Below, one piece after another: positions 4,954-36,125 of a stretch of 64,000 nucleotides of DNA. Within the stretch, counting starts at the first letter, position 1. Each line of letters opens with the position of its first letter. The stretch covers positions 110,252 to 174,251 of the forward strand of contig CAWDRO010000014.1 in the NCBI GenBank assembly GCA_963804735.1, in the 5' to 3' direction. The DNA comes from an uncultured Acidobacteriaceae bacterium (lineage in GTDB: Bacteria > Acidobacteriota > Terriglobia > Terriglobales > Acidobacteriaceae). The notes below the pieces were generated by a model. The model did not search any database. It was not told where the DNA came from and saw only the letters and a program-made list of their open reading frames with translations. The position numbers were made by a program, and so were the translations under genes.

Positions 4954-6225
4954 ATGAAGTTCAGTAAATTCGGGCGGGTCTCGCTGGCCGCGGTCTTGTC
5001 CCTGGGTGTGGCCGCAGCCTTCACCGCTTGCGGACCGGTTGGCTACAGCAACACGATCGATTACGTCTACGTCACCAACTCCAAGAACAATCCCGGACAG
5101 ATCAATGTCTATGACGTGCACGGGAATTCCGGCCAGCTTACCCAGATCCTCGATTCTCCGTACCCGACTGGGGGCAGAAATCCCGTCGGGCTGGTCGCCT
5201 CGCCGAACTTCAAGTATCTCTACGTGATCAACCACGACGAGAACACCATTGTCGAGTTCGGAATCGGCACCGATGCGAAGCTGTATCCGCAGCATACTTA
5301 CAACACTCCAGGCACCTTCCCAAATGGAATTTCGATTAATAGCGCCGGCACTTTGCTCTTTGTGACCGACACGTATCAGTCGCAGTACACGGCGGCCAAT
5401 CCAGGGCCGGGCGCGCTGGTCGTCTATCCAATCAATGCGGATGGCAGCCTGGCCGCGCCGGTGGCGAATGGAAACCTGTCGTACTACCCGCTGAGCCTCG
5501 GCGAGACGAATGTCCTAAATCCGACCGCTATCAATGTCCTCACCCTGGTCCCGGTGAATTCGACCACCGGGGGTGGCACTTTTGTCTATGTTGTCAGCCA
5601 GAACAGCACCACCGGTCTCGGCGAAACTTCGGCCTTCAGTGTTGCTTCGAGCGGAGCACTCACTCCGCTGCTTTGCTCTCCGTCGACCTCCGTCTGCGAT
5701 TCGAGTGGTAACGGCAACTTCAGCGCCGGCGTTGCGCCCAGTGCGATCACCAGCACACCTCTTGGTCGATATGTCTACGTGACCGACAGCGAGCGTAATC
5801 AGCTGCTCAGCTATACCGTTCAAGCCAGCGGTCAGATCGTTCCCACGCCGACCAGCCCAACCAACACCGACGTCTTCCCCGATTGGGTGACTGTCGATCC
5901 GCGCGGCGAATATGTGTACGTGGCCAACTACACGGCCAACAACATCAGCGCCTATAGCATCAACCCCTCCACTAACTCAGGCGTGACCTTTATCGGATCC
6001 TACGGCACCGGCTCGGGGCCCACCTGCGTCTTCGTCGAGCCGGCATTAGGTACTTATGTCTACACCACGAATTTCCTCGACAACACCGTCTCCGGACTAA
6101 ACCTCGATCTGAATACGGGAACGCTCGCGCCGGTGCAGAACACCCCGTTCCTCGCCGCCGGCCAGCCCACGTGTGTCGCCGCAACCGTCCATGGAAAGCG
6201 CCCGCCGATCACTTCCGCTAACTAG
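4954..6225 (+). CDS. Lactonase-family beta-propeller lipoprotein, paralog 2
   Basis: Lipobox AFTAC; blades SPNFKYLYV, TPLGRYVYV, DPRGEYVYVAN. Confidence 0.8.
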   Translation: MKFSKFGRVSLAAVLSLGVAAAFTACGPVGYSNTIDYVYVTNSKNNPGQINVYDVHGNSGQLTQILDSPYPTGGRNPVGLVASPNFKYLYVINHDENTIVEFGIGTDAKLYPQHTYNTPGTFPNGISINSAGTLLFVTDTYQSQYTAANPGPGALVVYPINADGSLAAPVANGNLSYYPLSLGETNVLNPTAINVLTLVPVNSTTGGGTFVYVVSQNSTTGLGETSAFSVASSGALTPLLCSPSTSVCDSSGNGNFSAGVAPSAITSTPLGRYVYVTDSERNQLLSYTVQASGQIVPTPTSPTNTDVFPDWVTVDPRGEYVYVANYTANNISAYSINPSTNSGVTFIGSYGTGSGPTCVFVEPALGTYVYTTNFLDNTVSGLNLDLNTGTLAPVQNTPFLAAGQPTCVAATVHGKRPPITSAN

Positions 6226-6305
6226 AGAAAGAAGGCAGGTGTAACGTTGGACCATATCTCCCATCGAACGCATCCGAAACCATCGTGGAATGGCTCTGTG
6301 TTCAC

Positions 6306-6334
6306 TAGCCGAAAGCTCCTGAAGCTTTTACAAT
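6306..6334 (+). promoter_or_regulatory. Putative promoter TAGCCG-N17-TACAAT (copy 3)
   Basis: Aligned with copies 1 and 2. Confidence 0.6.
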
Positions 6335-6417
6335 CAACCTGGGAGCGATCCCGAAATAGTTCGGTTGCCACGGCAGCACCTGATCCAGTTGTTGAAGGAC
6401 CGGGACGAAGGAAGCGC

Positions 6418-7713
6418 ATGAAGTTGAGTAAATTCGGGCGGGCCACGCTGGCCGCGGTTTCGTCCCTGGGTGTGGCCGCGGCATTCACCGCTTGCGGACC
6501 TAATGGCTATAACGAGACGGTCGATTACGTCTACGTCACCAACGCGAAAAACAATCCCGGGCAGATCAACGCCTACTACACGGATGGGCGCTCGGGAGCG
6601 CTCACCCAGATAACGGGTTCTCCCTTTTCCTCCGGTGGCACGGATCCGGTCGGTCTGGTGACCTCGCCCAATTTCAAGTTTCTATATGTGGTCAATAAAG
6701 GACAAGGAGGGTCCGCGAGCTCGGCCATTGTGGAATTCAGCGTCGGCGCCAATGCCGCTCTCAGTCTTGTGCACAGTTACGCGCCTACGGATTCGTTGAC
6801 CGAGCCCAACGCCGTAGCTATCAATTCAGCTGGCACGTTGCTCTTCGTTACTTATAACTATCAGCCCGGATTCACTGCCGCCCATCCGGGACCGGGGGCG
6901 GTGGTCGTCTATCCCATCAATTCCGACGGCAGCCTGGGAACGCCGGTGGCCAACGGGAGTCTGTCGTACTATCCGTTGAGCACCGGAACCGATGTCCTGA
7001 ATCCGACCGCAGTCAACGCGGTCACCCAGAACCCGGTCAACGCGACCGCCACCGGGCCGTCCTTCGTTTACGTCGTCGATCAGAACAGCACCACCGGCCT
7101 GGGCAGCATTTCGGCCTTCAGCGTTGGTTCGGGAGGAGCTCTCACCTTCGTGCCCTGCTCCTCGTCGGCTTCTATTTGCGATTCGACCGGCAACGGAACC
7201 TTCAACGCCGGCACAGCGCCTAATTCCGTCGCGAGCACTCCACGCGGACTTTTCCTCTATGTCACCGACAGCGTCAACAATCAATTGATCAGCTATTTGG
7301 TTCAGTCCAGCGGTCAGGTCATTCCGAACACGGATGGTCCCACCCGTACCGACGTATTCCCCGATTCGGTGACCGTCGATCCGCGGGGTAAGTATGTGTA
7401 TGTGGCCAACTACACCGCCAATGACGTCAGCGCCTACACCATCAACACCGCGACTGGATATCCTACGGGCGTCGCCGCTGCAGGAACCTATGCCACCGGC
7501 ACTGGCCCAACCTGTGTCTTCGTCGAGCCGGCGTTAGGTGTTTATGTCTACACGACCAACTTCCTCGACAACACCGTCTCCGGCCTGGATCTCAACCCGA
7601 ATACCGGGACGCTGACGCCAGTCCAAAATACGCCATTCGTGGCCGCTGGACAGCCCACGTGTGTAGCCGCGACTCCAAATGGAAACCACCCTATCAGCGC
7701 GCCGCTTACCTAG
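6418..7713 (+). CDS. Lactonase-family beta-propeller lipoprotein, paralog 3
   Basis: ATG 6418 after the same GACGAAGGAAGCGC leader; lipobox AFTAC; closely similar to paralog 2. Confidence 0.8.
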   Translation: MKLSKFGRATLAAVSSLGVAAAFTACGPNGYNETVDYVYVTNAKNNPGQINAYYTDGRSGALTQITGSPFSSGGTDPVGLVTSPNFKFLYVVNKGQGGSASSAIVEFSVGANAALSLVHSYAPTDSLTEPNAVAINSAGTLLFVTYNYQPGFTAAHPGPGAVVVYPINSDGSLGTPVANGSLSYYPLSTGTDVLNPTAVNAVTQNPVNATATGPSFVYVVDQNSTTGLGSISAFSVGSGGALTFVPCSSSASICDSTGNGTFNAGTAPNSVASTPRGLFLYVTDSVNNQLISYLVQSSGQVIPNTDGPTRTDVFPDSVTVDPRGKYVYVANYTANDVSAYTINTATGYPTGVAAAGTYATGTGPTCVFVEPALGVYVYTTNFLDNTVSGLDLNPNTGTLTPVQNTPFVAAGQPTCVAATPNGNHPISAPLT

Positions 7714-25640: not shown

Positions 25641-28397
25641 ATGTCGTGGCTTCGTAACTTTTTCTTCCGGAACCGCTTTCGCGCCGAACTCGACGAAGAG
25701 ATTCGCCAGCACATCGCCGAGCGGACCGAAGCACTGATTGCCACAGGCATGGAACCGGAAAAGGCCGCCAAGCAGGCTCGTCGGGCAATGGGCAATGTGA
25801 CTCTGAGTGCGGAACGCAGCGTCGAAGTTTGGCAGTGGCGTTGGATCGAGTCGCTCTGGGCCGACATACTTTACGCGGCCCGCATCCTGCGCAAGAGCGC
25901 CGCCTTTACCGCGATTGCAGTCGCTTCCCTCGCCTTCGCCATCGGCGCCAATACCACCATCTTCTCCTATGCCAACCAGATGCTCTTCGTTCGCCTGGGC
26001 GTTCCGCATCCGGAGCAGCTTCGGATCTTCAGGCTGACCGGCGACAACCATCTCGCGATTCGCGGGCTTGTAGGCAATGACGCCTATCGCGAAAACGGCA
26101 CCTTCCACCTCGGGCCCTTCCCTTACCTCGCCTATCGCCAGCTCCGCCAGCAGAATCATGTTGTCCAGGACATCGTCGCCTTCATGCAGATCCCCGACGT
26201 TGACATTACCGCCGCTGGCGCGCCGGAGGTAGGCAGGGCGCAGCTTGTCTCTGGAAACTTCTACACCCAGATGCAGGTGAAGCCGCAGATAGGCCGGCCC
26301 ATCGAGCCCGGCGATGATGGCGCCCCGGGCACAGGCGCTGTCGCCGTCATCAGCGATAGCTTCTGGCATCGCGAATTCGGCGGAGCGCATGATGTAGTGG
26401 GCAGGACCATCCGCGTGAACCTGACGCCCGTCACCATCGTTGGCGTCAACCCGCCCAGTTTTCGCGGTACCGTTGACGCCGATACTTCAGCTCCTGAAGT
26501 GTTTCTGCCATTGTCCATGATATTTGCGCTCGCACCTGGGCCTGTTAGCCAAAATCCCTTGATGAACCCCAATAACTTCAGCGTTCAATTGATGGCCCGA
26601 ACGAGCTCCGGAGTTTCGGATGTCACCGCCCAGGCGGCGCTCGATGCGGCGTTCAACGCTGCCTTTCGCGGCACGGCAATCATGAACAAGGGCGAAACCG
26701 TTCCCCGGCTCTCGCTCGAGGACGGAAGCCGCGGCATCACCTCCGGCATAACCTATCTCTTAAAGCCGCTCTACGTGCTGCTTTCGCTTGCCGGGCTCGT
26801 ACTTCTGCTCGCCTGCGCGAACATCGCCAACCTGATGCTGGCGCGCGCTTCCTTCCGCCAGCGCGAAATGAGCGTGCGCATGGCGCTCGGAGCGGGCAAG
26901 GCGCGCATCCTCCGGCAAGTCCTTACCGAAAACCTGCTGCTTTCGGCGATGAGTGGCGTTGCCGGTCTTATCTTGGGCTACTTCAGCCGCAATCTAATTC
27001 CTCTGCTGATGCAAACTGGCTGGGACGGCGGCGAGATGCCCGTCACGTTCGACTGGCGGGTCTTCGGCTTCACCTGCGCCGCAACGCTCATCACTGGCAT
27101 AGCCTTTGGCATCGCTCCCGCGTGGCGTTCGACTCGCGCCGAGATCAACACCGCGCTCAAAGAGGGGGCGCAAACATCCACCAGGCGGCGCAAAGCTTGG
27201 TCGGGCAAGGCGATCGTCGGTTTTCAGGTCGCACTCTCAACCCTGTTGGTCATCGCCGCCGTTTTCTTTCTACGAACGCTCTTCAATCTCAACTCTGTCA
27301 ACCCCGGCTATCGAACCAGGAATCTGCTACTGGTAGACATTACGCCGCCACGGACAGGACCACATGGCTCTCAGCCTTCTACCCTGCATAGCCGCGTGGC
27401 GGACGCCTTCGCGGCAGTGCCCGGTGTCCGGGAGGTCACCTACATCAACCACCCCCTTGGCGCGGACTCCCCGTACATATCTCAGTTCCAAGTCGAGGGC
27501 GATATCAAGGACCTCGCGGCCAATCGCGACTTCCGGGGCCGCGAAGACCGGTTTGCGACGTACTCCAATGTTGCACCAAACTTCTTTTCAGCCATGTCCA
27601 TCCCGATCCTGTCAGGCCGCGGATTCACTGCGGAGGACACGGAAAATTCCATTCCGGTTGCGATCGTCAATCAGACCCTGGCGAGGAAGTTCTTTCCCAA
27701 CACCAATCCCATCGGCAAACGCTTCTTCCGGAGCGTAGGCGACAAGCCCAATCGCTTGCTGGAGATCGTCGGCGTCTGCGCCGACATTCGCTATGGCGAT
27801 ACGCGGCAGCCAACCCCACCTGTGCACTTCGATCTTGACTCGCAGGCTCCTGGCTTCAGCAGCATAACCTACATCGTGCGTTCCGAGCTGCCGCCTAACG
27901 CCTTGGTACCGTCGCTCCGCCGCGCCCTACAGCACGTCGATCCCGACCTTCCCCTCAACCACGTCCGCACCCAACAGCAACAAATCGCCGCCAGCATGCA
28001 GCAGGAGCGCATGTTCGCGTCGCTCAGCGCCGGATTCGGCGTTCTTGCCCTGGCGCTCGCCTGCGTCGGCATCTACGGCATCATGGCCTACACCGTCTCG
28101 CAGCGCACCAACGAGATCGGCATACGTTTCGCACTGGGCGCGGCCCGCGGCCAAATCCGCGCGATGGTGCTCCGCGAGGCCGCATGGCTTGCCGTCGCGG
28201 GCTTGGCCATTGGCCTCGGAGCAGCAATCTTTCTCATGCGACTGGTGCAATCGATGCTCTACGGATTGAAGCCGGGCGACCCACTCAGCCTCGTTGCTTC
28301 CGCATTGCTGCTACTGGCGATGGCGCTGATCGCTGGTTGGATACCCGCTGCGCGCGCCGCAAAAGTAGAACCGATGGAAGCATTGCGACACGACTGA
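25641..28397 (+). CDS. ADOP (acidobacterial duplicated orphan permease) / MacB-like ABC permease
   Basis: LA..IGANTTIFS, LACANIANL.LAR...R..E..VR.ALGA duplicated architecture; YTVSQRTNEIGIR. Confidence 0.92.
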   Translation: MSWLRNFFFRNRFRAELDEEIRQHIAERTEALIATGMEPEKAAKQARRAMGNVTLSAERSVEVWQWRWIESLWADILYAARILRKSAAFTAIAVASLAFAIGANTTIFSYANQMLFVRLGVPHPEQLRIFRLTGDNHLAIRGLVGNDAYRENGTFHLGPFPYLAYRQLRQQNHVVQDIVAFMQIPDVDITAAGAPEVGRAQLVSGNFYTQMQVKPQIGRPIEPGDDGAPGTGAVAVISDSFWHREFGGAHDVVGRTIRVNLTPVTIVGVNPPSFRGTVDADTSAPEVFLPLSMIFALAPGPVSQNPLMNPNNFSVQLMARTSSGVSDVTAQAALDAAFNAAFRGTAIMNKGETVPRLSLEDGSRGITSGITYLLKPLYVLLSLAGLVLLLACANIANLMLARASFRQREMSVRMALGAGKARILRQVLTENLLLSAMSGVAGLILGYFSRNLIPLLMQTGWDGGEMPVTFDWRVFGFTCAATLITGIAFGIAPAWRSTRAEINTALKEGAQTSTRRRKAWSGKAIVGFQVALSTLLVIAAVFFLRTLFNLNSVNPGYRTRNLLLVDITPPRTGPHGSQPSTLHSRVADAFAAVPGVREVTYINHPLGADSPYISQFQVEGDIKDLAANRDFRGREDRFATYSNVAPNFFSAMSIPILSGRGFTAEDTENSIPVAIVNQTLARKFFPNTNPIGKRFFRSVGDKPNRLLEIVGVCADIRYGDTRQPTPPVHFDLDSQAPGFSSITYIVRSELPPNALVPSLRRALQHVDPDLPLNHVRTQQQQIAASMQQERMFASLSAGFGVLALALACVGIYGIMAYTVSQRTNEIGIRFALGAARGQIRAMVLREAAWLAVAGLAIGLGAAIFLMRLVQSMLYGLKPGDPLSLVASALLLLAMALIAGWIPAARAAKVEPMEALRHD

Positions 28398-29245: not shown

Positions 29246-29902
29246 ATGCCTGAAGAATCACAAAATCCGCCAGCCTCCCCGGAGCGTTCCTACAACAGCG
29301 AGCCATCGAAGGCCAGACTGCAGGCCGCCAAGGCAGCCGAGGACGCGGAGATGTTGTCTGGAGTTGAGCAAGGCGACCAGGCGGCGATGGGTCTGCTCTT
29401 CGATCGCTATTCGGGCATGGTGTATTCGGTCGCGCTGCGCGTGCTCAAAGATACCGGTCAGGCGGAAGATGTCATGCAGGAGATCTTCATCCAGATATGG
29501 AAGAAGCCGGGTGCATTTATTTCTGGCCGAGGTTCGCTGGGCGCATGGTTAGCTGTCGTTGCGCGAAATCGCGCGATTGACTCGCTGCGGCGTCGCCGGC
29601 CTACGGATTCGGTCGAGGATGTGGTGCTTGCCTCTTCCACCGATCTTGGCGCCGAGGCTGAGCGCAACACGCTGATGGAGAAGGTGCGCGGGTATATGCA
29701 GCAGCTTCCGCCCGAGCAACGGAAGTCGCTCGAGATGGCCTACTTCGAGGGGATGAGTCATTCGGAGATCGCCGAAAAAACCGGTGACCCGTTGGGCACG
29801 GTGAAGACGCGGATTCGGCTGGCGCTGATTACGCTGAGAAAGGCAATGCAAGGCAAGACAATCTCGAGTTCGGCTATTAAGGGAGAAGCAGTCCAACCGT
29901 GA
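29246..29902 (+). CDS. ECF RNA polymerase sigma factor (SigK-like)
   Basis: Region 2 AEDVMQEIF..IW and ARNRAID; region 4 AYFEGMSHSEIA...PLGTVKTRIR. Confidence 0.93.
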   Translation: MPEESQNPPASPERSYNSEPSKARLQAAKAAEDAEMLSGVEQGDQAAMGLLFDRYSGMVYSVALRVLKDTGQAEDVMQEIFIQIWKKPGAFISGRGSLGAWLAVVARNRAIDSLRRRRPTDSVEDVVLASSTDLGAEAERNTLMEKVRGYMQQLPPEQRKSLEMAYFEGMSHSEIAEKTGDPLGTVKTRIRLALITLRKAMQGKTISSSAIKGEAVQP

Positions 29903-30747
29903 ACGGACACCACATTTCGGACGAGGACTTGGTCCTCTACTCCATCCAATCGCTCTCGGCCGGCGAGACCGCCGCCGCGGCGCTGCATCTGGAGGAGTGC
30001 GCGGAGTGTGCCCGCCAACTCGCAGAGGTCTCTGGCGACCTCGCACTGCTCTCGCTGAGCGTCGAGCAGCAACCAATTCCAGCCGGGGCGCGCGATCGGT
30101 TCATGAGCCGCGTCGCTGCCGAGCCGCAGACTGCGGTTGCCACCGCACGAGCAACTACGCCTGTGGTGGCTGCGCCGAAGAGTGAGCCAGCGCCTGCCCG
30201 CGTCATTCACGAGGTCAAGCCTCGCCGCAACTGGTTCCCGATTCTTGTTCCGTCGGCGGCTGCATTTGCATTGCTGGCACTCGCCGGCTACCTCGGCAAC
30301 CAGAACCAGCGTCTCAACGAACTGCTCAACAACGACAAGGGTGAGATCGCGAAGCTCTCTGCGTCAGCGACGCACGCCGAAGAAGTGCTGGAAACCCTTA
30401 CTTCTCCGGCGGCGAAGCAAGTTACGTTGACCGAGGGCAAGGGTGCGCCTCCGCCTACTGGTCGCACCAGCTACCTTGCCGATAAGGGTGCGTTGGTGTT
30501 TGTTGGGAATAACCTGAAGCCGATTCCTGCTGACAAGACTTATGAACTATGGGTGATTCCGGCTGATGGAAAAGCACCTATTCCCGCCGGACTCTTCCGC
30601 CCTGACGACCATGGCTCGGCCAGCGTGGTATTACCCAAGCTGCCCGAAGGTGTGCCTGCCAAGGCATTCTGTGTGACAATTGAAAACGCTGAAGGCTCGG
30701 CCACGCCGACTATGCCCATCGTCCTCTCGGGTGCTGCTGGATTGTAA
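29899..30747 (+). CDS. Anti-sigma factor (RskA-like)
   Basis: HLEECAEC zinc-binding anti-sigma motif; TM helix; YELWVIP and F.VTIE..EGS..PT; overlaps the sigma stop codon. Confidence 0.88.
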   Translation: MNGHHISDEDLVLYSIQSLSAGETAAAALHLEECAECARQLAEVSGDLALLSLSVEQQPIPAGARDRFMSRVAAEPQTAVATARATTPVVAAPKSEPAPARVIHEVKPRRNWFPILVPSAAAFALLALAGYLGNQNQRLNELLNNDKGEIAKLSASATHAEEVLETLTSPAAKQVTLTEGKGAPPPTGRTSYLADKGALVFVGNNLKPIPADKTYELWVIPADGKAPIPAGLFRPDDHGSASVVLPKLPEGVPAKAFCVTIENAEGSATPTMPIVLSGAAGL

Positions 30748-31251: not shown

Positions 31252-31578
31252 ATGGCAGACGTTCGCGAGTACGTGGACACACGCGGACGAGTGCCTTACC
31301 GCGATTGGGTTTCCGATCTCGATGCTGCCACGAGTGCTCGGGTCATTGCCGCCGTGCTTCGCATGGAGGGCGGCAATTTTTCACAGGCTAAGAGCGTGGG
31401 CGCGGGGGTTTCGGAGCTGCGTCTGGATTTTGGCCCGGGGTATCGGGTCTATTTCGGCAGGGACGGCGAGGAACTGGTGATCCTGCTCGGTGGCGGCTCC
31501 AGGCAGCGGCAGCGTACGGACATCGAAAAGGCACATGGACTTTGGGCCGAATACAAGAGGAGAAAGCGGGAGGAATAG
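31252..31578 (+). CDS. Type II TA toxin, RelE/ParE superfamily ('addiction module killer', HigB-like)
   Basis: GN....KSVG.GV.ELR.DFGPGYRVYF...G..LV.LLGGG...Q..DI.KA signature. Confidence 0.9.
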   Translation: MADVREYVDTRGRVPYRDWVSDLDAATSARVIAAVLRMEGGNFSQAKSVGAGVSELRLDFGPGYRVYFGRDGEELVILLGGGSRQRQRTDIEKAHGLWAEYKRRKREE

Positions 31579-31896
31579 ATGCCACTGACACGGAGTTTCC
31601 GGGAGACGATCAAGGAGCAGCTGGCGAAGGACGATTTCCGGCGCGAGTTCTTGCGCGAGGCGGTGAGCAACATGATCGCCGGAGATTTGGAGACGGCCAA
31701 GTCGGTGTTGCGCGAATACATTAATGGGACCATCGGGTTTCCCGCACTGGGCGAGGCGCTCTCCAAGTCGCCGAAGAGCCTGATGCGGATGCTTAGCGTG
31801 CAGGGAAATCCGCAGGCGCGGAACTTGTTTGAGATCGTGGCCCATCTTCAGAAGGTTGATGGAACGGTGCTGGAAGTGCAGGCTTCGGCGGCGTAG
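31579..31896 (+). CDS. Type II TA antitoxin ('addiction module antidote', HTH)
   Basis: Start abuts the toxin stop; HTH-like segment followed by LS..GNP..RNL..I...L. Confidence 0.8.
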   Translation: MPLTRSFRETIKEQLAKDDFRREFLREAVSNMIAGDLETAKSVLREYINGTIGFPALGEALSKSPKSLMRMLSVQGNPQARNLFEIVAHLQKVDGTVLEVQASAA

Positions 31897-31922
31897 GTTT
31901 AGGTCAACTCGCAAGGTGGAAT

Positions 31923-31957
31923 CCCACGTCTCAAAAGCGAGACGTGGAGCACCCGGC
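31923..31957 (+). repeat. REP-like palindrome, family A (CCCACGTCTC-AAAAGC-GAGACGTGG-AGCACCCGGC)
   Basis: Variant of the palindromes at 34692 and 35758 with a compensatory A-T to G-C pair change. Confidence 0.8.
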
Positions 31958-31996: not shown

Positions 31997-32497
31997 TCAT
32001 TCCTGAAACAGAATTTCTGGGAATGCATTTCGGGCAACAAGTGTCTCGCCAATCATGACTCCTTTCCGGTGAGGCTTGTTGATGTAGGCCCGGAACTGTT
32101 TATTGGGTGGCGCTGTGACGATAATTTGGTATTGGTCCTCGCGTTCCCCCTTTGAGTTCTGGCGCATCTCGACGAATTTCATGATCTGCCCGTAGCTAAG
32201 CGCACATATCGCCTTGGCGCCAATGCAGACGAGCACTGCGAAGACGCTGGTGCAGTGCTCCCTCAGCTTTGTAAGCTCGTCTAAATGCGCTTGAGTGAAG
32301 TTAAAGATGTACTCGTTCGCGGCACCACGGGGCGACCCGGCATACTTGATGTATATCCCCGTCGTGTCGTTGATGCGAAACGCGCACCCCGACTTCTTTC
32401 CGTTGCTCCAGAAGGCGTTGATCGCCTTGAAAACGGGATGCTCGGCAATCTGAGTAAGTGCTGCGCCGTGGTACATGTGGTCGTCGTTAATCTTCAT
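31997..32497 (-). CDS. Hypothetical protein (166 aa) co-transcribed with the DGQHR gene
   Basis: GGAGG RBS; starts 10 nt after the DGQHR stop; no recognisable family. Confidence 0.75.
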   Translation of the reverse strand: MKINDDHMYHGAALTQIAEHPVFKAINAFWSNGKKSGCAFRINDTTGIYIKYAGSPRGAANEYIFNFTQAHLDELTKLREHCTSVFAVLVCIGAKAICALSYGQIMKFVEMRQNSKGEREDQYQIIVTAPPNKQFRAYINKPHRKGVMIGETLVARNAFPEILFQE

Positions 32498-32506
32498 ACT
32501 TGCCTC

Positions 32507-33679
32507 CTATGCCACGTGGCTCCCACTGTTAAGCTGAGCGCGCAGTTGTTCCTGAAGCTCCTTGATGACATTGCTGCCTGCCTCATCCGTCAGTTCTCCC
32601 GCCATAGCGGCGGCGATGATCAGTGCAGCCTTATTCCCTGACATGCCAGCTACGGCCCGCTCTCCGGTAGCCTCCTTACTCCAATCGAAGCGCGACCTCG
32701 CTTGCTTGAGATAGCGGGCAAAATCCTTGGGATCCACCCGGCCTTGGGGCATGCATCGATCAATGATTGCGGCAGCAAGAATCGAAAGGCTCCAAACCCC
32801 GACGTTCTTGAGGAGGAGATAATCTTTGGGGTTAGCCCACTCTTCAGAGAACACAGTCTTCACTGCCTGCCAGTAATTTCGGATTACGACGTACTGGATT
32901 TGTGCGTCTCCAAGATCGTAGATGTACTGGCTCTTCGAGAGGAGCTTGGCCACGCCGCCCTGGATGCTTGCGAAATTGACCAGTCTGGTTAATCCTTGCT
33001 GGCGAGTGCCCTTCTTTGAGCCGCCTTCGTGGATCATTCCATGCCATGGGGAGTCGGGGTCTTTGCTGAGTCTGCTGGCCAACCAGCGGTCGAGGTGATC
33101 GCGAATTTCAATCTCCTCGGGGCTTAGCCGATTCTGCATTACCGCGAGGTGTGAGGAGCTCAGTCCCTTCTGATTGCTGTTGATGTTGACAAAGAGCGAC
33201 CGTTCTTGGTCTTGACTGAGACCCACGTGAATCTGAAAAGGGGCGTCAGCAAGCAGGGGATCACGTCGATCATCGCCGGCGGCATGAAATAGTCGATGGT
33301 TTCCATCTACGCGGCTGACGTAGACCTTTCCTTCCTTCATTTCGCTGATCTGAAACTGAAGTTTGACGACTTGTGTGCCGTCCGGCCCCTCCTCAATCTT
33401 CAAGAGCTTCTTGTCGCGCACGTTGAGGACTACTTCTGGGAAGGCGCGCGGGTAATCCGGATCTTTTTGGCGGTGTACGTACTCGTATGCTTCGCTCGCA
33501 TGCTTTGGGGACAGGTCGCGCTGCAGTCCTTTTGGATTAGTGACCTGGTCGAATATATCCGGTTGGGAGATCATCGCTAGATGTGCAAGCGGCGCTGAGC
33601 CCCGGAAGCACACCGTGTCTAAATTCTTTGCTCTGTATGCCGTCAACTCGACGGCGTGGATACCTGCTAGTTTTGGCAT
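32507..33679 (-). CDS. DGQHR / DndB-like domain protein
   Basis: LQR.L...H...(A)..Y, FP..V.LN, VDGNHR, E..LF..IN..QK motifs of the DGQHR family; ATG 33679 with GAGGAG RBS. Confidence 0.85.
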   Translation of the reverse strand: MPKLAGIHAVELTAYRAKNLDTVCFRGSAPLAHLAMISQPDIFDQVTNPKGLQRDLSPKHASEAYEYVHRQKDPDYPRAFPEVVLNVRDKKLLKIEEGPDGTQVVKLQFQISEMKEGKVYVSRVDGNHRLFHAAGDDRRDPLLADAPFQIHVGLSQDQERSLFVNINSNQKGLSSSHLAVMQNRLSPEEIEIRDHLDRWLASRLSKDPDSPWHGMIHEGGSKKGTRQQGLTRLVNFASIQGGVAKLLSKSQYIYDLGDAQIQYVVIRNYWQAVKTVFSEEWANPKDYLLLKNVGVWSLSILAAAIIDRCMPQGRVDPKDFARYLKQARSRFDWSKEATGERAVAGMSGNKAALIIAAAMAGELTDEAGSNVIKELQEQLRAQLNSGSHVA

Positions 33680-33689
33680 GGGAAAGCTC

Positions 33690-33796
33690 CTCATTATTGA
33701 GATGTCGTCTCTCAATAATGAGATTATAACACTCCCAATTGAGAGTCAAACTATCAATTGAGATTATTTTATCTAAACTGAGAGTACAACTCTCAG
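33690..33796 (-). promoter_or_regulatory. Promoter/operator region of the DGQHR operon
   Basis: Minus-strand TTGACT (33744-49)-N15-TATAAT (33723-28). Perfect 13-bp inverted repeat CTCATTATTGAGA-N7-TCTCAATAATGAG at 33690-33722. CAATTGAGA twice (33736, 33755). CTGAGAG-N5-CTCTCAG at 33778-96. Confidence 0.65.
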
Positions 33797-34046
33797 ATAT
33801 GAGAAAAATCCAGTAAGAGATTGATGTAGATGATTTTGTTGATGAATCCTCGAAAGCAGGTCGCGGACGCGGTGGGCTCGTCTGTCGGGGAATATAGGCG
33901 ATTTGCTTGCCGCTGCGACCGAGGTCTTGGCCAGGGTGCGTCCTCTTTTGAAAGGCGTGAGCCGGTCTCCGTTGGGCATTAAGGAAGCACGCGACAACGA
34001 AGGGTATAGCGGCGATTGCCTGATGTGGGCCGCCCAGCTGTTGACG

Positions 34047-34253
34047 CTACGGCATTTGAAACGCTCCCACCGCGATGGCGTTGGGGTGTTTGGCGGCGGG
34101 GAGCATGGTGAAGAGTGCTCCGATTTTGCGGGGGCCTTGGGGGAGTAGCTGGTGGTGCGGATGACGGCGACGTCTCCGAAGCGGGGGTTGGCGACGAGGA
34201 CGAGATGGCCAACGCTCGAAAAGGCGAGGGCGTCGGGGCCGTCTCCGACCTGG
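34047..34253 (-). pseudogene. Displaced 3' fragment of the YVTN gene (copy F1, includes the stop codon, one 1-nt deletion)
   Basis: Translates QVGDGPDALAFSSVGHLVLVANPRFGDVAVIRTTSYS / QGPRKIGALFTMLPAAKHPNAIAVGAFQMP*, matching the C-terminus of 39434..40825. Confidence 0.92.
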
Positions 34254-34295
34254 GTGCGCTGATGGGTTGGGAGGGCGTCTCGGTTAAAGAGCCCG

Positions 34296-34377
34296 GGGCT
34301 AAAGCCCTTCTCGTTCGCTCGCGTTGTTTCGGCGGCCTAAAGGCCGCCGCTTCCACCGGATCGCCTTCGGCGATTTT
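34296..34377 (+). repeat. Triple-hairpin REP-like element L1 (GGGCTAAAGCCC...GCGGCCTAAAGGCCGC..ATCGCCTTCGGCGAT)
   Basis: Near-identical copies at 35943 and 41983. Confidence 0.88.
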
Positions 34378-34403
34378 GGAATGCAAATCTATTCCGGGCC
34401 TAA

Positions 34404-34485
34404 GACGTCTACGGAGCGGGGGCTGGCGACGAGGACGAGGTGGCCAACGATCGAGAAGGCGAGGGCGTCGGGGCCGTCTCCGACC
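34404..34485 (-). pseudogene. Shorter YVTN 3' fragment (copy F2)
   Basis: GGAGCGGG...GAGAAGGCGAGGGCGTCGGGGCCGTCTCCGACC matches about 39560-39638; preceded by the tail AATCTATTCCGGGCCTAA shared with F3. Confidence 0.85.
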
Positions 34486-34646
34486 ACGGCGCAACGATGA
34501 AGGAGACTCGAGGCAAACGAAGGCGAAGGGTTCCATTCAAATCAGCAGTTCGCGTTCATAGACCATCTCCGGCGTTAGGTGGTTGTGGAGAGCGATGAAC
34601 AATTCCTCGTGGACATGACTTCTTTGCGCCAGGGGCGTGCGGTTGG

Positions 34647-34726
34647 ACGCGTCAGTGGCGGGGTTGCAGAGAGGCCGCGCTCTGGCGAAAACCCACATCT
34701 CAAAATCGAGATGTGGGGCACCCGGC
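34647..34726 (+). repeat. About 80-bp direct repeat R1 with REP family A core CCCACATCTC-AAAATC-GAGATGTGGG-GCACCCGGC
   Basis: Matches R2 at 35713-35792. Confidence 0.9.
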
Positions 34727-34774
34727 CGTGCCCCTTCATAGAGCTCTGTCGGGTTTTGGAGCATCGCTGGAACC

Positions 34775-34814
34775 GCAGGTCCTTCCCCTTCGCGATGCTC
34801 AGGGTCAGGATGAC
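34775..34814 (+). repeat. REP-like element, family B (GGTCCTTC...CAGGATGAC)
   Basis: Same ends as the copies at 40686, 40756, 46425 and 51564. Confidence 0.75.
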
Positions 34815-34937
34815 GTTTGTTGGAGGTTGGGAGATTTGATCCCCCACCCTTGCCACCCCATCACCCCACTCTGCAAAAAATAGTTTCATCGCATCAGTCC
34901 CATTGCTGTATGGTTTTCTGACTGGCAAGGGGAACGA

Positions 34938-35688
34938 TTGCACATCCATACAACCGCATCCTGGCCCGGGCGTGACGATCGCCGGGCGGCGCTGGTCTGG
35001 CTTGGCATCTTCTGGATCTTCGTAGGCGTCGGCTTCGGCTTCGATCTGCACAACTACTTTCATGAGCAGCCGGCCGTGCCGATGATCGTCCACATACATG
35101 CTATCGCCACCACGCTCTGGCTGCTCACCGCAACCGCGCTTGTGCTCATGGTCGAAAGCGGCAATGTGCGCCTGCATCGCCGCCTGGGTTGGTTTGCGGC
35201 CGGTTACGCCGCTCTCATCCTGGTGATCGGTCCCTGGTCGGAACTCAGTTGGCAGGCCTTGAACCTTCCGACCCCCGGCGCTCTGCCTCCTCAATTTCTT
35301 TCCATCGCCTTCAGCGGAGTCATTTGCATGGCCTTTGCTGCTGCCGTGGGGCATTCTCATGCGCCGCAATTCCGCCGCCCATCGGCGCGTGCTCATTCTG
35401 GCCATCATCTGCATCAGCGATGCGGGTTTTTCCCGGTTTGTGAGTCTCTTTCTGCCTGCGCCAACCACCTTTCTCGGCACCTACCTGTTTTACGAGGGCG
35501 GTAATCTGTTCCTCATCCTTCTCATGTTTCTCTGGGACTGGAAACGCAACCGGATCATGAAACAGTTCCTCTGGGGAGGCTCCCTCGTAATCGCTCTGGG
35601 CCTGACGGCCACGGGCCTCTACTTCAACGAGACATGGAAAGCGATCACGCTCTCGTGGCTGGAGGCGTGGGGGCGGCACATGCTGTAA
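34938..35688 (+). pseudogene. Multi-TM membrane protein (DUF2306-like) split by a +1 frameshift near 35334-35336
   Basis: Hydrophobic ORF 34938 (HIHA..TLW, LHRRLGW) continues in the +1 frame as LLLPWG...AAHRRVLILA...WGRHML*. Removing one T from GCC TTT GCT gives GCC TTG CTG and a single ORF of about 250 aa. Confidence 0.75.
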
Positions 35689-35712
35689 AGCCACGCGCCC
35701 TGATGCGGATGT

Positions 35713-35792
35713 ACGCGTCAGTCGGCGGGGTTGCAGAGAGGCCGCCCTCCGACGGAACCCACATCTCAAAATCGAGATGTGGGGCACCCGGC
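35713..35792 (+). repeat. About 80-bp direct repeat R2
   Basis: Matches R1. Confidence 0.9.
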
Positions 35793-35811
35793 GAATCTAT
35801 TCCGGCCCTAA

Positions 35812-35897
35812 GACGTTTCCGGAGCGGGAGTTGGCGACGAGGACGAGGTGGCCAACGCTTGAGAAGGCGAGGGCGTCGGGGCCGTCTCCGATCTGGG
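35812..35897 (-). pseudogene. YVTN 3' fragment (copy F3)
   Basis: CCGGAGCGGGAGTTGGC...GAGAAGGCGAGGGCGTCGGGGCCGTCTCCGATCTGG matches about 39560-39641. Confidence 0.85.
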
Positions 35898-35942
35898 CGG
35901 CGTTGTTGCGTTAGGCGGGGCGTCTCGGTGGCAGAGGCCCAA

Positions 35943-36024
35943 GGCTAAAGCCCTTCTCTTTAGCTGGCGTTGTTTTCGGCGGCCTGAAGACCGCCGCTTC
36001 CACCGGATCGCCTGCGGCGATTTG
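35943..36024 (+). repeat. Triple-hairpin REP-like element L2
   Basis: Copy of L1/L3. Confidence 0.85.
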
Positions 36025-36125
36025 GGGTGAGAACCTGTTCGATTTGATTCTCAGCTCCGGACAATCAATTTCCATAGATTGAGGGCTTGAAGTTCCGCGT
36101 CTCAAGGGCGAGAGGCTGATGTGCG

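Follow-up and report, generated by a model that had tools for sequence, protein, structure and literature searches.

A mobile pairing of a DGQHR-domain gene, preceded by a putative operator, with a predicted nuclease-fold gene in an uncultured Acidobacteriaceae bacterium: a candidate anti-invader cassette

A two-gene cassette of narrow distribution

We describe a two-gene cassette found in a 64,000-nucleotide stretch of DNA (the window hereafter) from an uncultured Acidobacteriaceae bacterium (assembly GCA_963804735.1, contig CAWDRO010000014.1, positions 110,252 to 174,251), in which a gene for a stand-alone DGQHR-domain protein with the variant motif DGNHR (gene 1) is followed by a gene for a small protein with a predicted nuclease fold (gene 2, or the partner; Table 1). 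The cassette is rare and horizontally mobile, moving as a unit made of the promoter with its putative operator, gene 1 and gene 2, and the pair is a narrow, lineage-specific pairing, not a widespread system. Our best reading, to which we give a probability of about 0.4, is that a DGQHR sensor/regulator and a nuclease-fold effector form a split conflict module, similar to GmrSD and SspE, that goes back to one recent gene capture. A role as an anti-invader module appears plausible, and we put forward the hypothesis of a two-component anti-phage module that originated through recent pairing in a single lineage. In comparison with a preliminary description of this DNA, which suggested a candidate defense or nucleotide-sensing operon, three elements are new: a conserved putative operator, a predicted nuclease-like fold whose active site is non-canonical, and the single recent capture of otherwise independent genes.

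The DGNHR protein and its putative operator

The product of gene 1 matches the curated model of the DGQHR domain (TIGR03187) with 92.2 bits (cut-off 58.85; E = 4.5e-26), residues 30-317 aligning with model positions 5-275 of 276, and the match was reproduced on the genome. The motif, VSRVDGNHRL, presents an N in place of the Q of DGQHR, as noted before, and DGNHR is invariant in 16 of 16 aligned homologues at 65-100% identity; in the metagenome loci its invariance arises partly by construction, VSRVDGNH having been among the search patterns. A total of 594 homologues of gene 1 were found; 16 of these, labeled by their sources as Acidobacteriaceae, Nitrospiraceae and Streptosporangiaceae, show a mean column identity of 72%. 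In the 91% complete genome of 5.76 Mb, gene 1 is the sole DGQHR gene, neither the DndC model (TIGR03183) nor the DpdA model (NF041059) finds a match there, and no dndCDE genes in the window and no dpd cluster were detected. The protein is indeed a stand-alone member of the DGQHR/DndB superfamily, and the earlier remark that no dnd or dpd genes lie nearby holds genome-wide for these two models.

The best named match of this protein is DpdB, the ATPase partner of DpdA in 7-deazaguanine DNA modification, which is the only match in PADLOC-DB v2 (1.2e-17) and is also recovered by NCBIfam (3.7e-16), over residues 56-347, about three quarters of the protein. A DpdB proper was rejected, as the DpdB equivalog model NF041060, which requires 300 bits, gives 59 and DpdA is absent from the genome. 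A DndB proper was rejected as well, as the equivalog model of dnd-associated DGQHR proteins, TIGR04172, gives 34.6 bits where 450 are required and the genome has no dndCDE.

The start of gene 1 is the ATG at 33679, with a GAGGAG ribosome-binding site (RBS; 33686-33691) 6 nt upstream; the longest open reading frame (ORF) opens at a TTG at 33715, while the homologues begin at the 33679 ATG, with M[PA]KL[AST]G. The proposed promoter has a -35 box, TTGACT (33744-33749), and an extended -10 box, TGtTATAAT (hexamer at 33723-33728), with a spacer of 15 nt, a call that rests on reading of the sequence and on conservation, the consensus scanner having omitted a promoter with a 15-nt spacer. The region is conserved in two related cassettes, L001 and L002, despite their unrelated flanks. 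Five palindromes of the TCTCA-N4-6-TGAGA type are found here, at approximately 33791-33804, 33751-33764, 33732-33745, 33708-33723, and 33689-33702, overlapping the -35 box, the spacer between the boxes, the -10 box, and the RBS. The 130-nt upstream regions of 50 distinct DGNHR genes contain about 29 half-sites per kb, versus 0.7 per kb elsewhere in the same loci, and the CTCTCA-N4-6-TGAGAG palindromes are about 40-fold enriched upstream of DGNHR genes, in paired and unpaired clades alike, with only 12 such palindromes in the entire genome, two of them in the gene 1 promoter. The motif also recurs upstream of DGNHR genes across the subfamily, among them solitary orthologues from other phyla, whose promoters otherwise cannot be aligned. 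The half-sites are absent from a distant DGNHR clade (about 39% identity), the motif was not found upstream of solitary partner genes, and no second operator was found in the intergenic gaps of the paired cassettes.

In solitary cassettes, no product other than the DGNHR protein accompanies the operator, and the most economical explanation would be that it binds these sites and represses itself. One precedent is DndB of Salmonella enterica Cerro 87, shown experimentally to autoregulate by binding two TACG-N10-CGTA palindromes in its own promoter (PMC4507180). Like gene 1, dndB encodes a DGQHR-type domain, stands first in its operon and has at least two palindromic sites over its own promoter, an arrangement that would imply autoregulation of gene 1 as well. 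Unlike in the dndB operon, the motif of gene 1 is DGNHR, the sole downstream gene encodes a 166-aa nuclease-fold protein, and the operator sequence is different, CTCTCA-N4-6-TGAGAG versus TACG-N10-CGTA. Binding of nucleoside triphosphates (NTPs) by the gene 1 product is expected for the fold, as for DndB, and a DndB-like protein has been reported to bind ATP and GTP (bioRxiv 10.1101/2025.10.10.680097). From the placement of the palindromes and from this precedent, we infer autorepression of gene 1 through its putative operator.

The partner protein

The partner matches a family of unassigned function, phrog_28860 (E = 2.8e-17), residues 1-164 aligning with model positions 1-145 of 146, and it matches nothing in Pfam, in NCBIfam (RecU included), or in PADLOC-DB v2 at E-values up to 1. 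By exhaustive profile search, the family amounts to 576 representatives of clusters at 50% identity, nearly all of them single-domain proteins of about 165 aa. Nineteen homologues from several phyla, the close family, show a mean column identity of 64%, with an almost invariant N-terminus, MKINDDHMYHGAALTQIAEHP.

The AlphaFold2 (AF2) model of the partner has a predicted local distance difference test score (pLDDT) of 90.9, and all of its top Foldseek matches (PDB, BFVD) are of the PD-(D/E)xK type, with probabilities up to 1.0: the SPARDA nuclease domain, RecU/PrfA, Hjc, D212, DpnI, and phage RecU-like proteins. The model predicts an alpha-beta-beta-beta-alpha-beta core like that of RecU/PrfA, Hjc and the SPARDA DREN nuclease domain, and in the close family a Glu of helix 1 and a Lys of the central sheet are conserved. 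A restriction-endonuclease-like fold is a reasonable prediction. Among the 19 close homologues, no variation is seen at E19 and K51, E62 is conserved at 90% or more, and D44 is a D in 17 sequences. Over 82 full-length representatives of the wider family (median identity 36%), position 51 is K or R in 98%, and the best conserved residues are G11, N43, K51, F65, F67, C91, C98, and P160. The canonical D...(D/E)xK signature is missing, with no ExK triplet present and with K51 on a neighboring strand; judged from the predicted hairpin register only, this residue would be placed across the strand from the position of the canonical Lys. We know of no counterpart of the conserved Cys pair (C91 and C98) in RecU/PrfA, Hjc or the SPARDA nuclease. 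Nuclease activity is uncertain.

Domain fusions were sought in five of the six family members of at least 230 aa and in two of about 200 aa; one carries a piece of the GyrA C-terminus, and the others match no family. Of the homologues P0006 and P0241, one is joined, in the gene call, to a C-terminal GyrA fragment in a 299-aa protein, which appears to be an artefact of gene calling or assembly, as in locus L074 a convergent gyrA directly follows the partner gene. The other is labeled by its source as a "Rad3-related DNA helicase," a label that the sequence does not support. In L043, from an Acidobacteriaceae metagenome-assembled genome, the partner gene is split, residues 1-115 being encoded at 6001-6351 and residues 115-165 at 7249-7401, by an insert of about 900 bp that holds a 270-aa ORF and is possibly an insertion sequence.

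Pairing and mobility

Gene 1 ends with a TAG at 32507-32509, and gene 2 begins with the ATG at 32497, its GGAGG RBS (32503-32507) overlapping the gene 1 stop codon. The GC content of the cassette, 53.3%, is 5.5 points below that of the genome (58.8%), and the window has 59.2%. The preliminary description of a tightly spaced, low-GC operon with a GGAGG RBS is borne out by these data, with the gap corrected from 10 to 9 nt.

Two surveys addressed the distribution of the genes, one centered on the partner (49 species-representative genomes) and one centered on the DGQHR gene (82 metagenome and genome loci). Among the DGNHR loci at 80% identity or above, the partner gene is directly downstream in 24 of 24, the upstream gene 1 being frameshifted in L112. 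The intergenic gap across the paired cassettes varies from 0 to 163 nt, which fits co-transcription but not always tight coupling, while within the clade at 90% identity it is 8-10 nt, with the RBS of gene 2 at or just past the upstream stop codon. At 65-69% identity, the DGNHR orthologues, including one of a Nitrospiraceae genome, stand alone. Among 301 genomes of the family to which the window belongs, only one, the window's own, carries the gene. BLASTP clustering, along with Pfam and PADLOC tallies, revealed no conserved neighbors, either for the partner (49 loci) or for the DGNHR gene (82 loci).

The DNA homology that the window shares with L001/L002 covers exactly 33763-32000, beginning 85 nt before gene 1 and ending at the stop codon of the partner, and the flanks are unrelated; in the paired clade, the pair is stable over at least eight different genomic contexts. 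The partner also occurs, with no DGNHR gene, on (pro)phages of Ralstonia and Burkholderia as well as on four contigs of IMG/VR. No DGNHR gene was found on phage or IMG/VR contigs, in an IMG/VR scan that required its two conserved peptide motifs, and none was found on plasmids, the PLSDB matches being at most 30% identical and belonging to a different operon, with DGQHR, radical SAM and ATPase genes. In three of these, from rhizobial and Roseomonas plasmids (L134:3905-8182, L135:4007-8242, and L136:3956-8197), a DGQHR homologue of 27-30% identity, with the motif VDCQHRL, heads a conserved three-gene operon, in which its gene overlaps one whose product, of about 545 aa, is a radical SAM protein by annotation in two records and hypothetical in the third, that of Roseomonas, followed by a gene for an ATP-binding protein of about 525 aa. 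This operon adjoins PIN-like, ParB and DEAD-helicase genes, and it is apparently a different, uncharacterized DGQHR system.

Genomic neighborhoods

The neighbors of the paired cassettes include type III restriction-modification genes (L001 and L058), a type I specificity subunit along with a ResIII helicase (L055 and L059), a DUF4365 protein (L065), and the HigB-like toxin-antitoxin pair of the window. Histidine kinase, gyrA and amidohydrolase genes are found as neighbors as well. One solitary DGNHR orthologue lies between NERD and ThsB-TIR/caspase genes, and tallies over 140-147 neighbors reveal, dispersed among numerous housekeeping genes, some of defense systems and mobile elements (DrmC, MADS, methylases, integrases, and a resolvase). 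The defense-island signal is suggestive.

In the window, the left neighbors (31252-31896, plus strand), convergent to the cassette, are a Gp49/HigB-like gene whose product matches PF05973 (E = 1.5e-5) and an overlapping gene for a 105-aa putative antitoxin, for which the family scans made here gave no match. This pair has a backbone-like GC content of 60%. The related cassettes, L001 and L002, lack it, and therefore it lies outside the mobile unit. To the right is a repeat mosaic (34148-36026) with repeats of 109, 53, 39 and 37 nt, and the placement of the cassette between a toxin-antitoxin pair and a mosaic is as previously stated. A palindrome resembling repetitive extragenic palindromic (REP) elements, CCCACRTCTCAAAAnCGAGAYGTGGG, is present three times in the window (31921-31957, 34690-34726, and 35756-35792), the first copy sitting exactly between the partner stop codon and the convergent toxin-antitoxin pair. 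This hairpin is a host repeat outside the mobile cassette, possibly serving as a bidirectional terminator. Backbone genes at 25641-28397 and 29246-30747 encode an FtsX-type duplicated permease, an extracytoplasmic function (ECF) sigma factor and an RskA-type anti-sigma factor. In genomes of the same genus, the sigma/anti-sigma block is only 71% identical at the DNA level and synteny is lost to the right of the islet; comparison with these genomes gave no empty site, the flanks being only 71% identical and not syntenic.

Table 1. Positions in the window of the cassette components and of the adjoining repeat
Feature	Position	Strand	Description
Gene 1	32507-33679	minus	390-aa DGQHR-domain protein, DndB/DpdB superfamily, VSRVDGNHRL subfamily; putative NTP-binding, DNA-binding autoregulator and sensor
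Gene 2 (partner)	31997-32497	minus	166 aa; single-domain restriction-endonuclease-like (PD-(D/E)xK-type) fold predicted by model; uncharacterized family phrog_28860
Intergenic gap	32498-32506	minus	9 nt
Promoter and putative operator array	33680-33805	minus	Read from sequence
REP-like palindrome	31921-31957	no strand	9-bp stem; repeat family D2; other copies at 34690 and 35756

Comparison with known systems

In GmrSD and SspE, ParB-like DUF262 domains serve as NTPase sensors and switch on the nucleases to which they are fused, and Dazbog (DzbAB) and Menshen (NsnABC) are multi-gene defense systems that include a DUF262 protein of the ParB superfamily (PMC12065111). The proposed logic of the pair is similar to that of GmrSD, BrxU and SspE, in which a ParB-fold, NTP-binding DNA sensor is combined with a nuclease-type effector in a small mobile unit, often near restriction-modification genes, and GmrS and GmrD can be encoded by separate genes. 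In contrast, the ParB-fold family is DGQHR in the pair versus DUF262/DGQQR in these enzymes, the effector is PD-(D/E)xK-like versus DUF1524 of the His-Me/HNH type, the two parts of the pair usually occur apart, and the activity of the pair is only proposed. An enzyme of the GmrSD/SspE type was rejected, as Pfam finds neither DUF262 nor DUF1524, and the resemblance is in logic only. Membership in Dazbog, raised previously with the statement that this system includes a DndB-like protein, was likewise rejected: no Dazbog or Menshen model of PADLOC matches either protein, Pfam detects no DUF262 in gene 1, and Dazbog carries DUF262, a sister ParB-like family, not DGQHR (PMC12065111), so that the statement is true at the superfamily level only.

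Interpretation and alternatives

In the reading that we favor, the DGNHR protein, of the ParB/Srx fold, would bind NTP and DNA, by analogy with DndB, would repress its own promoter via the palindrome array that covers the -35 and -10 boxes and the RBS, and would sense or mark target DNA while keeping the operon repressed. Gene 2 would go back to a single capture, in a lineage associated with Acidobacteriaceae, from a widespread family whose members stand alone. It would now share a transcript with gene 1, and in this clade its translation would probably be coupled to that of gene 1. The nuclease-fold partner would be a DNA-directed effector against invading DNA, and the pair would represent a split analogue of GmrSD, BrxU and SspE, enzymes that combine a ParB-like NTPase with a nuclease. 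We infer, in this scheme, nuclease or DNA-binding activity of the partner, physical or allosteric coupling of the two proteins, and a role in defense. In favor of this reading we count the operon anatomy with its RBSs, the DGQHR match above its cut-off, the PD-(D/E)xK matches of the partner model, the mobility of the cassette as a unit, the retention of the partner in 24 of 24 loci, the rarity and low GC of the cassette, the enriched palindromes with the DndB and DUF262 precedents, and the restriction-modification, DUF4365 and toxin-antitoxin genes in the flanks of paired cassettes, along with the NERD and ThsB-TIR/caspase genes around an unpaired orthologue.

A number of observations weigh against this reading. 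Of the 49 partner-bearing genomes, 47 have no adjacent DGQHR gene, and none of these 47 encodes a DGNHR homologue anywhere, in a search that recovers the gene in the window's own genome; the remaining two are close Acidobacteriaceae relatives, with DGQHR proteins 91% identical. Likewise, of the 44 DGNHR loci at 36-79% identity whose downstream sequence reaches 400 nt or more, none has the partner, and no other conserved neighbor is found at these loci. With 24 of 24 loci paired at 80% identity or above versus 0 of 44 below, the association must have arisen once and is confined to one clade, and as both proteins are normally solitary, neither needs the other. Co-occurrence of the homologues, whose failure the preliminary description had named as grounds for abandoning a defense system, thus breaks down outside one narrow clade. 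As to the proteins themselves, support for gene 1 does not extend beyond hidden Markov models at the structural level, its AF2 model being poor (pLDDT 66) and the Foldseek matches of that model meaningless, and PDB sequence searches were empty for both proteins. The Foldseek matches of the partner have low template modeling scores (TM-scores), 0.35-0.47, with E-values of 5e-4 to 3e-3, and sequence identities to RecU/PrfA, Hjc and SPARDA are 9-16%. Over the 82 representatives, 78% have an acid (E or D) at position 19, with the same share at position 62, and D44 is not a conserved residue; for the nuclease-like effector suggested earlier, the PD-(D/E)xK-type fold has found support in AF2 and Foldseek, while the catalytic acids are not conserved family-wide. 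Finally, many neighbors of both families are housekeeping genes, and PADLOC, a check that the preliminary description had called for, matches the pair to no described system.

The main rival explanation, which we consider somewhat unlikely, is that of two independent single-gene elements in tandem, the DGNHR gene being a self-contained, autoregulated mobile gene with a function of its own and the partner, a self-sufficient small gene, having landed downstream once and now hitch-hiking, co-transcribed yet functionally uncoupled. The overwhelmingly solitary state of each family would fit such a tandem, as would a gap of 0-163 nt, in which tight coupling is not conserved, and the occurrence of the partner alone on phages, where the DGNHR gene was not found by the two-motif scan. 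Such a tandem is more difficult to reconcile with the retention of the pair in all 24 clade members, down to 80% and 67% protein identity and in many insertion contexts, with cassette borders that coincide with the promoter and the partner stop codon, or with the 8-10 nt spacing and the RBS at or just past the stop codon in the 90% clade. An unlikely possibility is that the DGNHR proteins form a class not recognized before, of self-contained, autoregulated single-gene NTPase elements of the ParB/DndB fold, which would carry their operator across phyla and act alone on foreign DNA, with NTP-dependent binding, spreading, silencing or nicking as conceivable modes; the window would then have captured the birth of a two-component system, such an element having recruited a nuclease-fold gene of equal autonomy.

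Two further explanations place the pair outside of defense. That the cassette combines a regulator with a housekeeping-type DNA enzyme, for example a DndB-like repressor of a RecU/Hjc-like structure-specific DNA binder or resolvase serving repair, recombination or a mobile element, seems to us distinctly improbable: Holliday-junction resolvases (RecU, PrfA and Hjc) are among the best structural neighbors of the partner, DndB is itself a transcription factor, many neighborhoods are of a housekeeping nature, and temperate phages, on which the partner is found, are frequent carriers of resolvases, but the extreme rarity of the gene (1 of 301 related genomes) and its patchy distribution across phyla are not what such a role would predict, the catalytic residues of resolvases are not conserved in the partner, and the partner matches no Pfam or NCBIfam family, that of RecU included, nor the sequence of any solved structure. 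Very improbable, in our opinion, is a maintenance or addiction module, composed either of a ParB-like binder of a centromere or operator with an accessory protein, or of a nuclease-fold toxin with the DGNHR protein as its antitoxin or regulator. Gene 1 does belong to the ParB superfamily, its palindrome array lies beside its own gene, as in partition loci, and the cassette is mobile and adjoins a HigB-like toxin-antitoxin pair; against this, there is no ParA, the subfamily was not found on the plasmids of PLSDB (matches of 30% identity or less, from a different operon), and the putative toxin, present alone in 47 genomes devoid of a DGNHR gene, is therefore not lethal alone. A type II toxin-antitoxin module was rejected on the same grounds, the DGNHR gene also being found alone elsewhere.

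Significance

What is understood of DGQHR proteins is so far confined to their accessory part in the dnd and dpd systems of DNA modification. The data presented here define a conserved, cross-phylum DGQHR subfamily that has no dnd or dpd partners and whose members carry a putative operator of their own, CTCTCA-N4-6-TGAGAG, which is a directly testable DNA target for the DGNHR subfamily. They also link this subfamily to a widespread, uncharacterized family of predicted nuclease-fold proteins of 165 aa, which lacks a Pfam entry and comprises 576 clusters at 50% identity. If the pair is no defense system, then adjacency in one clade would be weak evidence for a "system," with both genes functioning alone elsewhere. 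If the DGNHR proteins are single-gene elements, the cassette would provide a natural snapshot of the assembly of sensor and nuclease systems, of the GmrSD/SspE type, from free-standing parts. If, instead, the pair is a true defense system, a variant composed of a DGQHR protein and a PD-(D/E)xK protein would join the theme of ParB-fold sensors coupled to nucleases, with an origin by gene capture.

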